In this document: positions 9,359 through 39,539 of the stretch, piece after piece
How positions within the stretch are numbered: position 1 is the first letter of the stretch
Layout: every line of letters starts with the position of its first letter
Assembly: GCA_030693295.1 (NCBI GenBank)
Contig: JAUYAT010000008.1
Location: 1 to 60,663, forward strand
Source of the DNA: a bacterium
GTDB taxonomy: Bacteria; Patescibacteriota; Patescibacteriia; Patescibacteriales; VMTK01
Direction of reading: 5' to 3'
Length of the DNA stretch: 60,663 bases
Position numbers and translations under genes: made by a program
Notes under the pieces: model-generated
Told to the model about the DNA's origin: nothing
What the model saw: the letters and a program-made list of their open reading frames with translations, nothing else
Databases searched by the model: none

Positions 9359-9874
9359 TTAAGGTTCTGTCCTTAGGTGGTGCGTTTTTTTATATTCTAA
9401 TCTTCCCCGCAACTCATTCATAAACTGTATTCTTTCTCTGGCTGTGTGTGTAAGTAAACTTGAACAAAAATTTTTATCTGGACTTAAAACAACTTCTAAT
9501 TTTTTATTTTCATACAAATATTCAACAAGAGAATAGAAATCTCCGTCATTAGATACAACAACAGCTTTGTTATATTCACTCATTTCAATGACGGCTCGCA
9601 AAACCAAATCAGCATCTATATTACCTTTAATTTTGCCATTTAAATCTGGAATTGTCGGTTTAAACTTAAGAATAAATCCTGCTTCCTGCAAACAATCATA
9701 TAATCCTTGATTAAGAGACACAAACCCAATAAACATATAGGCCTTGCTCACCCCATACTTTTCCTTAAGATAAATACGAAAACGGGCATAGTCCAATTTC
9801 CAACCCAAAATCTGAATACCCAGATTCAGATTTTGGCTATCTATAAACGCAAAATTATTTTCTTTTGAAATCAT
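9359..9874 (-). CDS. NYN-domain (LabA/DUF88-like) putative RNase
   Basis: ORF-track 9359..9943; the likely start is MISKENNFAFIDSQNLNLG at 9874. Followed by ...VVVSNDGDFYSLVEYL. Confidence 0.6.
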   Translation of the reverse strand: MISKENNFAFIDSQNLNLGIQILGWKLDYARFRIYLKEKYGVSKAYMFIGFVSLNQGLYDCLQEAGFILKFKPTIPDLNGKIKGNIDADLVLRAVIEMSEYNKAVVVSNDGDFYSLVEYLYENKKLEVVLSPDKNFCSSLLTHTARERIQFMNELRGRLEYKKTHHLRTEP

Positions 9875-9997: not shown

Positions 9998-10276
9998 TCA
10001 TATTTTGTCTGCGGCCAGCCCCGTTAGAGAAAGGAAGCGTTTCAAACGATTTTTAAGATAGCGCTTGCCGGGACCGGATTTTAAATACCTTTCTCTCGCA
10101 AAAGCATCGCTTTCGTTTTTACAAGCTTCATAATAAATTAATTCAAAAGGACCTCTGCATTTTGTGGCTATAACCTCACTATTATTGTGTTGTTTGAAAC
10201 GCTTCCGTAAATCATTAGTACATCCGGTATACCATCTATCATCCTTTTTGCTTTGTATTACATAAGTATAAAACAT
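9998..10276 (-). CDS. GIY-YIG nuclease family protein
   Basis: 92 aa: MFYTYVIQSKKDDRWYTGCTNDLRKRFKQHN...RERYLKSGPGKRYLK. Confidence 0.75.
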   Translation of the reverse strand: MFYTYVIQSKKDDRWYTGCTNDLRKRFKQHNNSEVIATKCRGPFELIYYEACKNESDAFARERYLKSGPGKRYLKNRLKRFLSLTGLAADKI

Positions 10277-32768: not shown

Positions 32769-33515
32769 TCAAGTTTTTATTTCCCTGCCTCGCGCCCAGG
32801 CGATTTCAAAGATCGGCTTCATTGACTTTGCCAATTCTTCCGATTCAATAATAACGATAAAGGGCTCTTCTCCGAGCGAAGTTATGGCCAGCTTATTTCC
32901 GTAAATGGTAAAGTCCATATTGAAATTTTTTATCTCCGGCAAATATCTCGCGGATTGCCCGATCTTGGAAAACTTTTTCATTACTTCAATATCAAATTTA
33001 TTATTGGGAACCAAATGTTTTCCTTTCAGGGGAATTAATCCCTTTTTGTAATATTCCACCCACTTATCTATTGAGCCGGGGAAATGTTTTTCTATTCTTT
33101 CGTATGAAGAAATAAAAAAACCGTCTTTTGCTTGGTTCATTTCTTCATAGGTGTTCCAAATGCCCTCCTTGGTTTCATGATAAGTAATTTTTGGCCGTTT
33201 CTTTCCTTTATTATGAAGCGTTCTAAAAATGGGCAGCATTGCGATAAAGTTTTTAGCGGTAATTTGCAGTTTACTAAGAATGATTGACGGGTCAATCGCC
33301 TGATAAGTGTTTATTTTAAAATCAGGCAATTCGCTGGCGTATCCTCGCTTTATCAAGCCTTCTAAAATTACATAAATAATCGGACGCTTAAGCTCGGTAA
33401 TTTTGGCTATCTCGGTAACATTGCCCTGCCCAAGTTCAAGCAATGCCAAATAAACACTTGCTTCTTTTTCCGTAAAGCCGGTTTGTTCTAAAAGTTTTAT
33501 TAATCCATTATCCAT
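32769..33515 (-). CDS. TrmB-family transcriptional regulator (second copy)
   Basis: 248 aa: FTEKEASVYLALLELGQGNVTEIAKITELKRPIIYVILEGLIKRGY. Confidence 0.7.
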   Translation of the reverse strand: MDNGLIKLLEQTGFTEKEASVYLALLELGQGNVTEIAKITELKRPIIYVILEGLIKRGYASELPDFKINTYQAIDPSIILSKLQITAKNFIAMLPIFRTLHNKGKKRPKITYHETKEGIWNTYEEMNQAKDGFFISSYERIEKHFPGSIDKWVEYYKKGLIPLKGKHLVPNNKFDIEVMKKFSKIGQSARYLPEIKNFNMDFTIYGNKLAITSLGEEPFIVIIESEELAKSMKPIFEIAWARGREIKT

Positions 33516-36086: not shown

Positions 36087-36296
36087 ATGTTAAGCGCGAT
36101 GAAAAAAGCATTATTTATCGGAATCGGCATCGGCCTGTTTATTATTGGCTTTATCGGGCTTGCTCTTCCGATTTTGCCGGGATTTATTCTGTTGTTCATA
36201 GGATTTACTTTTTTAAACAAAGAATTGAGTTGGCTTGAAAAATTGAATTTGCGGAAAGATAAATTAATTAATAAGCTAAAAAAATTTTACATTTAA
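36087..36296 (+). CDS. Small two-TM membrane protein
   Basis: 69 aa: ALFIGIGIGLFIIGFIGLALPILPGFILLFIGFTF. Confidence 0.5.
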   Translation: MLSAMKKALFIGIGIGLFIIGFIGLALPILPGFILLFIGFTFLNKELSWLEKLNLRKDKLINKLKKFYI

Positions 36297-36400
36297 TTAA
36301 GGCGTAATTGGCGTAATTGATTACTGATTAAATTTGACTTTTTTCGCAATAAAGTTTATAATTTTTTTAGTCCTTGGACAGGGCTATTATTTTTTTTAAC

Positions 36401-36475
36401 GCGCCGCTATCGTCTAATGGTCAGCCCGCCTCGACTCGCGGAGCTCGTCGACGCGAGGCGGGGACACCAGGTTTT
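36401..36475 (+). pseudogene. tRNA-Glu-like 5' half, interrupted by a GC hairpin and truncated at the anticodon loop
   Basis: GCGCCGCTATCGTCTAATGGTCAG[CCCGCCTCG..CGAGGCGGG]GACACCAGGTTTT parallels GGCCCCATCGTCTAATGGTTAG-GACACCAGCTTTTCAAGCTG of the intact tRNA-Glu 330 nt downstream. No 3' half follows. Confidence 0.5.
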
Positions 36476-36727
36476 ATGGAGTTTATATTATATTGGTTAG
36501 TAAGTAATGATTTTAAATACACATACATAGGGTTTACTGATAATATTAAAAGGAGGATTATTGAACATCAAAGAGGCAAGGTAAAAACCACCAAGAGCTT
36601 TAATGGATTTAGATGTTTTGTAATCGAAAAAGTTATTACTATTCAGGAGACTAGAAAAAGAGAAAAATATTGGAAATCAGCAGCAGGAAGAAAGAAATTA
36701 AAAGAATATTTTAATAAAATTAAATAA
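36476..36727 (+). CDS. GIY-YIG nuclease family protein
   Basis: Likely start MEFILYWLVSNDFKYTYIGFTDNIKRRIIEHQRGK at 36476. The ORF-track extension to 36374 reads through the tRNA fragment. Confidence 0.7.
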   Translation: MEFILYWLVSNDFKYTYIGFTDNIKRRIIEHQRGKVKTTKSFNGFRCFVIEKVITIQETRKREKYWKSAAGRKKLKEYFNKIK

Positions 36728-36731
36728 GTAT

Positions 36732-36803
36732 GGCCCCATCGTCTAATGGTTAGGACACCAGCTTTTCAAGCTGAGAATCGGGGTTCGATTCCCCGTGGGG
36801 CTA
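36732..36803 (+). tRNA. tRNA-Glu, anticodon UUC
   Basis: GGCCCCA TC GTC TAATGGTTAG GAC A CCAGC TTTTCAA GCTGA GAAT CGGGG TTCGATT CCCCG TGGGGCT A. Confidence 0.85.
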
Positions 36804-36812
36804 CAAAAATAA

Positions 36813-36848
36813 AATACCTCCGATGCAAATCGGGGGTATTTTATTTTT
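36813..36848 (+). terminator. Intrinsic terminator after tRNA-Glu
   Basis: 12-bp stem AATACCTCCGAT-gcaa-ATCGGGGGTATT followed by TTATTTTT. Confidence 0.75.
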
Positions 36849-36905
36849 GTATTAATTCGTATAAAATGTTATAATAAACGCAACCCAAAGACTGATGTTT
36901 TTATT

Positions 36906-39539
36906 ATGAAAAAATTTATAAACAAACAAATAGGCATAAAGATTAAAGGAATAATTTGTTTGTTGTTTGTTTTTTTATTATTAACGCCGATCAATTCAAT
37001 AAAAGCCGGTGATTTAACAAGTAGATTAAAGGGAAAAATTTTACTTCAAGTGCAAAGCCACGGTGAAGCTTGGTATGTCCATCCTGACACCGGAGAAGGA
37101 TATTATTTAGGCAGACCCGCTGACGCTTTTCGCATTATGAGGGAGTTGGGCCTGGGAATATCCAATAAAGATTTTGATTCTTTTAAGGGCGCGGCCCCCA
37201 AAAGATTAAGCGGTAAAATATTGCTTAAAATTGAAGACAAAGGCAAAGCCTATTATGTTAATCCCGTTGATTTGAAGATGCATTATTTGGGCCGTCCCGC
37301 CGACGCATTTGGAATAATGAGAAAGTTGGGTTTAGGGATTTCAAATGCCGATTTATCTGAAATACCTGTTGCCGGAGAAGGTAGTACTGCTGCGGAAGGA
37401 AATACTACTTTATTAAAATCATATCGCCTCTTGGTGTTCACGAAAATTAATGGCGCCTGGCCGACCAAAGACGGCGGTTATATTGTTTCCGGCGCGACTG
37501 ATCCCAATATTATGTTTATTCCGCCGGACGGATTCGTGGCCAAGCTTGACCAGCAAGGAAATATTCAATGGCTTAAATTTTTGAAAACCACAAATTCCGC
37601 CGGCGTTGGTAATCTTCTGGGCGATGAAGATGTCCAATCAATTATTGAGTTGAAAAACGGCGGATATTTAATGGCTTCCAAGGTGTGGGGTTTTATCAAG
37701 GCCGCGGAATGGAACGCGGACGATATAGAATTAAATAAAATAATGCTTACCAAATTAGACAAAAACGGCAATATGATTTGGAACAAGTCTTTCACCGCGT
37801 TCGCGGAGGACGCAAGAAATTCTTTATTGGAAACCGCTGACCGCGGTTTTTTATTTTACGCGAATATCCTTAATTCGGATCCGGATGAAAGAGGAGAAGA
37901 CGCAGATGTTTATCTTGATCAACCTTACGCCTCGCTTAAAGTTTTTAAGTTTGATCAAAATGGCAATATTCAATGGTCAAAGAATATTAAAAATTTTATT
38001 GCTCGCAAAAGCGAGACATATCTCACCGCTACGGCTGACGGCGGCTATGCTTTGGCGGGAAATTTAACGGAGATAAATCCGGAAAAGGAGCTGCCTTATA
38101 ATTTTGATACTTATCCGGGACTGGCTAAATTTGATAAAAATTTTAACTTTGAATGGGCGAAAAGCATGGAGGGTACGCCGTTAGATATGGCGGCGGCCAT
38201 TCCTAAGCCGGGCGGCGGGTTTGAGTTGGGATGGAAAAAAGTGCGGCAAGGGGCGATTATTACCAAAGGCATGGCGCGGACCGAAGATAACGGTTATCTT
38301 GTTTTAGGACAATGGTCCGGGGGTTTGTCCTTAATGTCAGACAGTTTGGATTTAAAATCACCCGTGAAAGGTTATCTTATAGCGTTTAAATTCAGTTCTT
38401 CAGGCAACTTGGAGTGGGTTAAAAAAATGACTTTAAGTTTTAATGAGTTCACCGCGCCGATGATAGATTTTTCCGTTTCCTTGACAACTGACAACAAAAT
38501 GTTGATGGTTGGTCCGATTACTTGGGCTGATTATGACTATGGAGAAAAAAATAAAACTGCCAGTGATCAAATTAAATGGTATAATGAAAAATACGGGGAA
38601 GCGGAAATGTCAAAAGAGGATAGTGAAAAATCTAAAGAGTCGCTACAGGATTATAAAAAAGTTCAGGCGGCTCTTAAAATAACTCAAGACGCTTTTCGCA
38701 AGGGCATTTTTATGATGAAAATGGATAGCGAATTAAACGCCGGCTGGGCAAAAATAATTAATCCGCAACGGGAGGCCGCCAACTATGTGACACGAGCGAC
38801 CGCGGATAACGGCGCCTTGATTGCCGGCGAATATACTTCCACTGACATCCAATCGGTTATATTGGATAGCATTACTTATTATAAAGACGGTTTTTTAATG
38901 AAATTGGACGCGAGCGGCAATGTTAAAGATAATAAAAATTGGATTATAAATTATAGCGGAAACATTATTACGGAATTGATGACGCCATACGCGGTTTCTA
39001 ACGATTTGAACGCGCAGACAGAACCTTATTCAATTAATTTAACTGATCGCAAGCCGGAATTTTCTCTTTACAAAAATGCCAAGACGGCCGTTTATGCTCC
39101 CTTCGCGAGTTATAAAGATCTTTTACCGCCAGTAGCGCCCTTAGTTTCCGCTTATGATACACCGCTGCAAAATTCATCCGGCGCTTCAACCGCGGCAAGA
39201 ACTTGGCCGCAAATTAATTATGAAAAAGCGATCCCGGCCGAACTGATTAATGGCAAGAGTCAAACTGTTCACGGCGAGCTCCTGCCGATTTTAAATCAGC
39301 TTTACAATAATCAAGTCAAGATGACGGACAATATGGACGGGGCGATGCTTTATTACGTATTTGATCGCATTATAACCAAAGACGATATAACCGCGGTAAA
39401 AAATTATCTTGAGGGCCTTGGTTATAAAACACAGGACGAAGGGCTTTATGAATTAACGACGTATAAGCCGGGCTATTTTTTGATTTTAACTTTTTCCACG
39501 GGTAATGCCTACAAATCGTTTTTAAAGATAACTTATTAA
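36906..39539 (+). CDS. Large secreted protein: two N-terminal ~50-aa modules plus a repetitive beta-rich body
   Basis: 877 aa with a signal peptide. LKGKILLQVQSHGEAWYVHPDTGEGYYLGRPADAFRIMRELGLGISNKDF and LSGKILLKIEDKGKAYYVNPVDLKMHYLGRPADAFGIMRKLGLGISNADL. Recurrent xxDGGYxxxG motifs follow. Confidence 0.65.
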   Translation: MKKFINKQIGIKIKGIICLLFVFLLLTPINSIKAGDLTSRLKGKILLQVQSHGEAWYVHPDTGEGYYLGRPADAFRIMRELGLGISNKDFDSFKGAAPKRLSGKILLKIEDKGKAYYVNPVDLKMHYLGRPADAFGIMRKLGLGISNADLSEIPVAGEGSTAAEGNTTLLKSYRLLVFTKINGAWPTKDGGYIVSGATDPNIMFIPPDGFVAKLDQQGNIQWLKFLKTTNSAGVGNLLGDEDVQSIIELKNGGYLMASKVWGFIKAAEWNADDIELNKIMLTKLDKNGNMIWNKSFTAFAEDARNSLLETADRGFLFYANILNSDPDERGEDADVYLDQPYASLKVFKFDQNGNIQWSKNIKNFIARKSETYLTATADGGYALAGNLTEINPEKELPYNFDTYPGLAKFDKNFNFEWAKSMEGTPLDMAAAIPKPGGGFELGWKKVRQGAIITKGMARTEDNGYLVLGQWSGGLSLMSDSLDLKSPVKGYLIAFKFSSSGNLEWVKKMTLSFNEFTAPMIDFSVSLTTDNKMLMVGPITWADYDYGEKNKTASDQIKWYNEKYGEAEMSKEDSEKSKESLQDYKKVQAALKITQDAFRKGIFMMKMDSELNAGWAKIINPQREAANYVTRATADNGALIAGEYTSTDIQSVILDSITYYKDGFLMKLDASGNVKDNKNWIINYSGNIITELMTPYAVSNDLNAQTEPYSINLTDRKPEFSLYKNAKTAVYAPFASYKDLLPPVAPLVSAYDTPLQNSSGASTAARTWPQINYEKAIPAELINGKSQTVHGELLPILNQLYNNQVKMTDNMDGAMLYYVFDRIITKDDITAVKNYLEGLGYKTQDEGLYELTTYKPGYFLILTFSTGNAYKSFLKITY

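Follow-up and report, generated by a model that had tools for sequence, protein, structure and literature searches.

How does a nuclease gene come to begin inside the anticodon of a broken tRNA gene, a few nucleotides ahead of an intact gene for the same tRNA? The question is raised by a locus on contig JAUYAT010000008.1 of the patescibacterial assembly GCA_030693295.1; the whole stretch of 60,663 nucleotides (nt) is called the window here, and it is contig C45 of the genome. In this locus, a truncated tRNA-Glu(UUC) gene (hereafter the stump) is interrupted by a GC-rich hairpin and is followed by a gene for a GIY-YIG protein of 83 amino acids (aa) and then by a complete tRNA-Glu(UUC) gene. It is considered fairly probable that a selfish nuclease-hairpin cassette, acting by what may be termed "break and replace", took over the resident tRNA-Glu(UUC) gene.

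Anatomy of the locus

The genome searched comprised 1.06 Mb in 62 contigs, with a GC content of 40% and 43 tRNAs. The features of the locus were as follows, in window coordinates.

36334..36362, + strand: sigma-70-type promoter, TTGACT-17 nt-TATAAT, agreeing with the consensus at 11 of 12 positions
36368..36396, + strand: leader hairpin followed by a T-run, TAGTCCTTGGACAGGGCTA TTATTTTTTT; flagged as terminator-like, part of the resident tRNA-Glu leader
36403..36424, + strand: stump, positions 1-22 of the resident tRNA-Glu(UUC) (acceptor 5' strand GCCGCTA and D-arm), GCCGCTATCGTCTAATGGTCAG
36425..36462, no strand assigned: 38-nt GC-rich palindromic hairpin, CCCGCCTCGACTCGCGGAGCTCGTCGACGCGAGGCGGG, between D-arm positions 22 and 23 (from sequence and fold)
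36463..36475, + strand: stump continued, tRNA positions 23-35, GACACCAGGTTTT, ending inside the anticodon
36476..36727, + strand: gene for the 83-aa single-domain GIY-YIG nuclease, stop codon included (Pfam PF01541)
36728-36731: 4-nt gap between the stop codon and the intact tRNA
36732..36804, + strand: intact tRNA-Glu(UUC), acceptor GGCCCCA/TGGGGCT (ARAGORN; Rfam tRNA, 63.2 bits)
36804..36849, + strand: intrinsic terminator (20-pair stem, then a T-run) at the end of the transcription unit

The ATG at 36476 falls between anticodon positions 35 and 36, and the GIY-YIG gene is the sole open reading frame (ORF) from the stump to the tRNA. We infer that 36334-36849 is a single transcription unit, and the resident promoter probably now drives the whole cassette.

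The likeness of the stump to the 5' half of tRNA-Glu, which had been proposed in a sequence-only reading of the window, was evaluated by formal alignment. With the hairpin removed, the stump matched positions 7-35 of tRNA-Glu(UUC) at 27 of 29 positions with a score of 48, against a mean of 11.4 (sd 2.1) and a maximum of 26 in 2000 shuffles; the likeness is thus real, and the best match among the genome's 43 tRNAs was the adjacent tRNA-Glu(UUC). The remaining anatomy described in that reading was also borne out, namely the 38-nt hairpin interrupting the D-arm, the ORF starting inside the anticodon, and its end 4 nt before the complete tRNA. The tRNA-caller check that it had recommended was carried out with ARAGORN, which called no tRNA at the stump in intron mode or with relaxed thresholds, with or without the hairpin. 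When 36200-37000 was searched against Rfam at E ≤ 10, only the downstream tRNA was returned, with no intron, ribozyme or other RNA family. No 3' half of the resident (stump) type was found anywhere in the assembled genome, which agrees with its noted absence from the locus, and the working copy at 36732-36804 is the only tRNA-Glu(UUC) of that assembly. With no 3' exon, no match to a ribozyme or intron family and no tRNA call in intron mode, the suggestion that the locus holds a degenerate tRNA intron finds no support.

Resident stump and replacement tRNA

A query consisting of the promoter and leader joined to the first bases of the stump was searched against 316 genomes of the order and a metagenome collection. 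Matches were found in one genome of the same family (G004, locus L219) and in four metagenome contigs, three of them distinct (L220-L223). In all of these, the same promoter, TTGAC(T/A)-17-TATAAT, precedes an uninterrupted tRNA-Glu(UUC), and the loci contain neither the hairpin nor the nuclease gene. A leader hairpin of the form AGTCCTT...GGACT/GGGCT, followed by a T-run, is kept in all five loci with this promoter (the window and L219-L222); being terminator-like, the leader hairpin at 36368-36396 may serve as an attenuator or as a processing signal for the tRNA unit. The acceptor strand GCCGCTA of the stump is also that of the uninterrupted genes (L219 and L220-L223), and its anticodon stem CCAGG likewise agrees with cassette-free relatives. 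The resident tRNA of the metagenome contigs reads GCCGCTATCGTCTA(A/G)TGGTTAGGACA(C/T)CAGGTTTTCATCCTG...CGTAGCGGTAC, and its acceptor strands pair properly. Genes of this type run on, ...GGTTTT|CATCCTGG, at the point where the stump breaks off. Because its promoter, leader and acceptor strand recur in uninterrupted genes of relatives, the stump is taken to be the resident gene; as judged from these sequence comparisons, it is the first 35 nt of a conserved resident tRNA-Glu transcription unit. A comparison with tRNA-Glu loci of relatives had also been recommended in the sequence-only reading. In the same-genus genome G001 (91% complete), no tRNA-Glu(UUC) match was obtained at all.

The working tRNA is a different allele. 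Its acceptor 5' strand is GGCCCCA and its anticodon stem CCAGC, against GCCGCTA and CCAGG in the stump. The GGCCCCA strand is also present in the cassette-linked tRNA-Glu(UUC) of locus L188 (Ca. Parcubacteria SURF_51), which lies on an unrelated contig with different flanking genes and carries the same kind of cassette. The difference in alleles therefore points to replacement by an imported copy and not to duplication of the resident one. It had been suggested from the window that a GIY-YIG element invaded a tRNA-Glu gene and that the gene was repaired by duplication; the first half of this proposal fits the present results, and the second does not quite do so.

At L219 (G004:C105), the tRNA-Glu(UUC) at 1544-1616 was itself found to be irregular: its 5' strand GCCGCTA faces a non-matching 3' strand, TAGGGCT, with two of seven pairs mismatched in our own reading. 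About 170 nt downstream, after GC-rich hairpins, lies a second copy of the tRNA 3' end, TTCCCCTTAGGGCT. The mismatch and the spare 3' end suggest either a replacement event on the 3' side or a damaged gene.

The nuclease

The 83-aa product matched the Pfam GIY-YIG family PF01541 over residues 4-74 (E 7e-12; 45.9 bits against a cut-off of 22.6). The residues Y6, Y17, G19, R27, H31, E63 and K67 are all present and are 99-100% conserved across 90 homologues. The ratio of nonsynonymous to synonymous substitution rates (dN/dS) was 0.17-0.24 in comparison to the closest homologues, at which distance synonymous sites are saturated. The gene is thus intact and under purifying selection. The protein consists of the bare catalytic domain, with no second or DNA-binding domain. 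TIGR01453, the family of group I intron endonucleases, scored 18 bits against a cut-off of 56 with only the catalytic part covered, and the sole sequence match in the PDB was a weak one, 1zg2 (UPF0213; E 0.18). From its sequence, the protein is assigned to the GIY-YIG superfamily as a predicted nuclease, with a putative activity, target and mobility.

The hairpin

The 38-nt element is predicted to fold into a perfect 9-bp outer stem, CCCGCCTCG/CGAGGCGGG, with an additional inner stem. It is present once in the genome according to both BLAST and a hairpin census, and BLAST likewise found no other copy of the half-tRNA; the census returned 40 perfect GC-rich hairpins of at least 8 bp and no high-copy family of this type. 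Copies were recovered from other cassettes. The hairpin of L188 is identical at 38 of 38 positions, although it is inserted at D-loop position 15/16 instead of 22/23 and the remainder of that cassette is 72% identical; at 72% identity, a 38/38 match has a chance of about 4e-6. In locus L003 (genome G036), the hairpin is identical at 36 of 38 positions and occupies the same D-arm site in the inverted orientation.

The pattern CCCGCCTCG-N18-22-CGAGGCGGG was searched across all GTDB species. Among the matches listed, 101 of 120 loci were in GC-rich genomes and had unrelated inner sequence, and statements on the hairpin family therefore rest on the 19 low-GC loci among those matches. Related hairpins (CCCGCCTCGACTCGC...GTCGACGCGAGGCGGG) were found solo in coding regions, in intergenic DNA and at the tips of other repeats, in metagenome-assembled genomes (MAGs) labelled Patescibacteria, Gammaproteobacteria and Phycisphaerae. 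Judged from these sequences, the hairpin would be either under very strong sequence constraint or independently mobile.

Distribution across the order

Homologues of the nuclease were searched for in 41 genomes of the order, every match was fetched, and 90 full-length genes were analyzed. Homologues were present in 28 of the 41 genomes, usually several in each, and none was found in the other 13. A tRNA on the same strand lies at most 60 nt downstream of 45 of the 90 genes, and the stop codon is often 10-23 nt inside that tRNA. For comparison, the chance rate of such adjacency is about 0.2%, by our own rough estimate from 43 tRNAs in 1.06 Mb. Upstream of 35 of these 45 genes there is a copy of the same tRNA that starts within its first 10 positions. 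In four of the 90 cases the tRNA is directly upstream, and in 41 there is no tRNA, some of these genes being at contig ends.

Gapped alignment revealed a constant design: tRNA positions 1 to X, a GC hairpin at the position of the D-, anticodon- or T-loop, further tRNA bases, and the ATG. The hairpin, present in nearly all of the upstream copies, is typically followed by a few to about 25 nt of tRNA and then by usually no more than about 20 nt (sometimes up to about 60) before the ATG. Fourteen tRNA identities are involved. The window locus is thus one copy of a widespread family.

Two loci bear on how such cassettes may behave. At L181, a unit of 5' fragment, hairpin and nuclease gene is present twice in tandem before tRNA-Val, with the two units identical at 322 of 326 positions; this is the product that would be expected from re-invasion of a working copy. 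In the genome of the window, contig C3 carries a tRNA-Ser(GCU) copy up to the T-loop with a double hairpin, then a GIY-YIG gene, then an intact tRNA-Ser(GCU). C3 (10.9 kb) and the first ~1.3 kb of contig C20 are two versions of one locus, 91-94% identical, in the same assembly. Their tRNA-Ser(UGA) genes are identical at 87 of 88 positions, whereas the nuclease-adjacent tRNA-Ser(GCU) of C3 matches its C20 counterpart at just 71 of 93. The existence of two versions suggests mixing of strains or species in the MAG; it offers a natural comparison, and statements on copy number are to be read with that caveat.

Other displaced tRNA ends were seen in this genome. Behind each of the intact tRNAs Ser(GCU), Ser(UGA), Gly(CCC) and Gln(UUG) lies an extra copy of its 3' end (C20:~500-830; C12:18394-18470; C12:~9700-9750). 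The spare ends have GC hairpins in or beside the T-loop (TTCG^AATCC in two Ser copies), and one of them repeats 30 nt of the downstream flank. A 36-nt double hairpin is identical in C20, at the spare end of tRNA-Ser(UGA), and in C3, at the stump of tRNA-Ser(GCU).

Complete tRNAs nested in broken copies of the same tRNA were also observed (C8:12098-12286; C12:18527-18694; C8:~33050-33257). These comprise a Val(UAC) gene inside the anticodon loop of a second tRNA-Val, the outer halves of which still pair; a Thr(CGU) gene inside the D-arm of a second tRNA-Thr; and an Arg(CCU) gene behind which stand positions 22-73 of another copy. The ends of two inserts, CCTGCCCGCC...GGCAGGCGGGG, belong to the hairpin class of the nuclease clade that includes the window gene, and none of the inserts contains a nuclease gene. 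A filled and an empty version of a nested tRNA-Glu were found within the family, at L090 (G002, 1427-1650) and at L091 (G003, reverse strand, 1501-1573). The promoter and the outer tRNA (GGTCCCT...AGGGACTAC) are common to both. The outer tRNA is intact in G003; in G002, anticodon-loop position 35 is followed by an insert that holds a further complete tRNA-Glu(UUC), on a stalk whose ends, CGCACCAC/GTGGTGCG, are inverted.

Nuclease tree and target labels

A quick maximum-likelihood tree was calculated from 88 columns, and many of its forks were unresolved. The window protein groups with those of L002 and L003 (SH-aLRT 96), and L188 encodes a similarly close homologue (~61% nucleotide identity over the ORF); all four genes are on tRNA-Glu, and their hairpins occupy the D-arm. 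In a second Glu clade, the hairpin is in the anticodon loop (support 99). There are also a Val clade (support 97) and a clade with breaks in the T-loop of Ser, Arg and Gln tRNAs (support 96). In the 13-gene clade that holds the window copy, 11 genes have a hairpin of the CCYGCC...GGCRGG type.

The numbers of label changes on the tree were compared to those from 300 shuffles per label:

tRNA identity: 27 changes observed; shuffled mean 34.8, minimum 30
tRNA-embedded or not: 15 changes observed; shuffled mean 30.2, minimum 22
crude hairpin class: 23 changes observed; shuffled mean 30.6, minimum 25

Descent alone can outperform shuffles, and these tests are therefore indications, not proofs, that nuclease lineages carry target information. 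The many switches of tRNA identity imply that the cassettes change tRNA hosts often.

Comparison with known systems

No published description of GIY-YIG cassettes in tRNA genes was found in the literature searched. Judged by sequence, the closest characterized relatives of the window protein are the hairpin nucleases of the Ssn family (cd10448), single-domain GIY-YIG proteins of ~94 aa whose genes are typically flanked by a hairpin repeat (Chenal et al. 2025, PMC11893778). SsnA (94 aa) binds its hairpin repeat (NTS, SRM) and cuts single-stranded DNA beside it; the repeat-gene-repeat layout was likened by the authors to insertion sequences, and tRNA is mentioned nowhere in that paper (PMC11893778). 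Common to both are a tiny single-domain GIY-YIG protein (83 aa here) and the position of its gene beside an inverted-repeat hairpin of 20-50 nt. The tRNA-embedded clade and an SRM-flanked GIY-YIG clade of the same genome were aligned by hhalign with a probability of 98.6% (E 5e-16). There are also differences: the window protein is in a separate clade of the tree from the SRM-flanked genes; its hairpin has another sequence, lies on the upstream side only and is single-copy in the genome; and its gene forms part of a tRNA transcription unit, together with a truncated resident tRNA and a replacement tRNA. When the genome was searched with the published SRM pattern, none of its six GIY-YIG genes had a match closer than 400 nt, and the motif likewise fits no hairpin beside the tRNA-embedded nucleases.

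Elsewhere in the genome, the SRM motif was matched 45 times (shuffles give 1-4), about 43 of the matches being copies of TGTCATTCCCGCGAAAGCGGGAATCCAG. These copies often form inverted pairs ~73 nt apart, e.g. C1:17843/17916, C8:16965/17037 and C20:2374/2447. At C18:~1744-2049, a GIY-YIG gene lies between inverted copies, ~55 nt long, of a variant of this repeat; together with the SRM repeats, it looks like a canonical Ssn/SRM system in a genome of the Candidate Phyla Radiation (CPR). The window itself contains a second GIY-YIG gene, at 10043-10270 on the minus strand (92 aa), with no tRNA nearby. It is located between inverted copies of GCCCCGTTAGAGAAA / TTTCTCTAACGGGGC; the motif occurs twice more just upstream of the gene, and a very similar one was found in the Phycisphaerae-labelled locus L194.

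In logic, the closest system would by analogy be the mobile ORFs (mORFs) of fungal mitochondria, which create gene hybrids in Allomyces atp6 and in Glomus atp6, atp9, cox2 and nad3 (PMC3630166). On insertion they bring in foreign sequence that stands in for the displaced end of the gene, and the native end, which matches close relatives, is left beside them (PMC3630166). The window locus likewise has a native stump that matches cassette-free relatives and a divergent working tRNA, a likeness in architecture only. The mORFs are mitochondrial, are in protein-coding genes, duplicate the 3' (C-terminal) end and encode larger endonucleases, whereas here the setting is a bacterium and a tRNA gene, the protein family is another one, the native 5' end is displaced, the cassette brings a complete tRNA, and a GC hairpin is never missing.

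A free-standing homing endonuclease of the seg type had also been suggested for the window gene, and this comparison holds by analogy only. Seg-type proteins have a GIY-YIG domain and a separate DNA-binding domain; the 83-aa protein is a bare catalytic domain, and its closest characterized relatives are the Ssn proteins. For homing of this kind, the replaced tRNA alleles next to the nuclease gene and the tandem at L181 would be indirect support. SegB of phage T4 is larger (~220 aa) and has several domains, one part of it serving to bind DNA. The GIY-YIG gene of SegB, which is free of an intron, lies in a tRNA cluster and is reported to favour its own inheritance, and that of the tRNA region around it, through cleavage of the competing allele (PMC2330249). 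The two cases have in common a GIY-YIG nuclease gene among tRNA genes without an intron; they differ in that SegB is not known to have a truncated tRNA copy, hairpin or tRNA replacement and is a phage gene, and the present one is on the chromosome of a cell.

Group I introns that carry homing endonuclease genes interrupt anticodon loops of bacterial tRNAs, such as cyanobacterial tRNA-Leu(UAA) and tRNA-fMet. Like them, the window element is inserted in a tRNA anticodon loop and would be transcribed with the tRNA; unlike them, it has no ribozyme or 3' exon and supplies a second full tRNA, presumably released by RNase P and not spliced. A group I intron was rejected on the Rfam, ARAGORN and 3'-half results given above. 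Genomic islands and prophages integrate into tRNA genes and regenerate them; their integration relies on a tyrosine or serine recombinase, they span kilobases, and it is the 3' part of the tRNA that they duplicate. As in those elements, a partial copy of the tRNA marks one end of the window element and an intact tRNA the other, but the window element is ~330 nt long, encodes only the GIY-YIG nuclease and displaces the 5' part. With the GIY-YIG gene as the sole ORF, there is no recombinase gene between stump and tRNA, and an island of the integrase type was rejected.

Proposed mechanism and alternatives

In the proposed break-and-replace cycle, the nuclease, like its Ssn relatives, would recognize the hairpin and cut DNA nearby, or would cut cassette-free tRNA genes at a loop position. 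The break would be repaired from a cassette-bearing copy, with the upstream partial tRNA and the downstream full tRNA as homology arms, and the hairpin, the nuclease gene and the replacement tRNA sequence would be copied in together. The stump would be disabled by its truncation inside the anticodon and by the hairpin in its D-arm. Nuclease and tRNA would then be co-transcribed from the tRNA promoter, and RNase P cleavage would detach the tRNA from the message's 3' end, so that no intron or splicing would be needed. The host could not easily lose the cassette, because the only working tRNA is linked to it.

Several points weigh against this proposal. All of its steps (activity, target site and transfer) are inferred. 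The right-hand junction of the insertion is not definable, and the model gives no reason why the downstream working tRNA escapes cutting. A dN/dS below 1 would be seen in a protein useful to the host no less than in a selfish protein. No gene order flanking the window locus (queA, a small PGPGW membrane protein and an 877-aa protein) is common to it and the tRNA-Glu loci of the family and the metagenomes. The cassette-free loci are from other genera, or from metagenome contigs without common flanking genes; the comparison therefore documents the ancestral state of the tRNA unit and not a recent gain at the exact chromosomal site. Among the matches listed, 16 of the 19 low-GC hairpin loci have no adjacent nuclease gene and three have one; as the hairpin is, in addition, single-copy in the genome, the link between nuclease and hairpin is circumstantial, though regular. 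Finally, 27 changes of tRNA identity among 49 rows imply that simple allele-specific homing is not the whole story.

That link is the subject of the strongest alternative, which treats the hairpin as a miniature palindromic element in its own right that gathers in dead tRNA copies. Ordinary recombination of DNA taken up by the cell would spread the block of nuclease and tRNA, and the nuclease would have no specific hairpin or tRNA target. The solo hairpins of the family, at their varied sites and in several phyla as labelled, are in keeping with this, as is the finding that within one nuclease clade the hairpin occurs at different D-loop positions and in both orientations. It is nevertheless judged unlikely: almost every upstream copy contains a hairpin, which as a rule lies a few to ~25 tRNA nt ahead of the end of the homology; hairpin class is shared by 11 of the 13 genes of the window clade and changes less often on the tree than in any shuffle (23 against a minimum of 25); and the characterized Ssn relatives act through such hairpins (PMC11893778).

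A slightly lower probability is given to a host function of the small GIY-YIG protein, whose gene would be retained beside tRNA genes for a cellular task, for example DNA repair at highly transcribed tRNA loci or tRNA metabolism, the half-tRNAs being relics of local duplication and nothing now being mobile. Purifying selection on the protein, the presence of several copies per genome in most genomes of the order, the apparent co-transcription with an essential tRNA and the lack of any observed transfer event would all be expected of such a gene. It would not be expected, however, that stump and working tRNA are different alleles of which the stump is the one matching relatives, that the same locus differs between the near-identical C3 and C20, that the closest homologues are in unrelated chromosomal contexts, that 13 of 41 genomes have no homologue, or that a tandem re-invasion exists (L181). 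The hairpin, always in the dead copy, is also left unexplained.

The idea that the locus encodes a functional tRNA-Glu, either split or with an intron, whose upstream half would be joined or spliced to a 3' half as a second tRNA, draws on the break in the usual intron region of the anticodon loop and on the good preservation of the 5' half, but is highly improbable given that the genome has no matching 3' half, that GCCGCTA of the stump cannot pair with the downstream TGGGGCT (two of seven pairs mismatched in our own reading), that neither an intron or ribozyme family nor an intron-mode tRNA was detected, and that the hairpin disrupts the D-arm. Equally remote is an assembly or binning artefact joining reads of two strains, since strain mixing does exist in the bin (C3/C20) but the same architecture is present in dozens of independent assemblies and the locus is 36 kb into a 60.7-kb contig.

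Implications

If the break-and-replace proposal is correct, the tRNA genes of ultra-small bacteria (CPR/Patescibacteria) would be routinely overwritten by selfish cassettes of ~330 nt that bring their own tRNA. This would explain why tRNA alleles differ between near-identical strains, as well as the half-tRNAs and nested tRNAs that litter these genomes. Annotation pipelines miss the stumps and may mis-call the tRNA complements of such genomes. The 83-aa nucleases, with their short cognate hairpins, would be candidate compact DNA cutters specific for sequence or structure.

More tentatively, and with rather more doubt than confidence, the cassettes may form a so far undescribed class of gene-drive-like elements in bacteria. 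Guided by the hairpin, a minimal GIY-YIG nuclease would break a resident tRNA gene at a loop, the cassette would install its own tRNA under the resident promoter, and the host would become dependent on it; the nested tRNA inserts without a nuclease gene would then be non-autonomous derivatives that depend on this machinery for their movement or maintenance. For the Ssn-type hairpin nucleases, the break-and-replace proposal would supply a concrete selfish life-style. It would also add an intron-free way for an endonuclease gene to live in an essential RNA gene, by duplicating or replacing that gene and relying on RNase P for its release.

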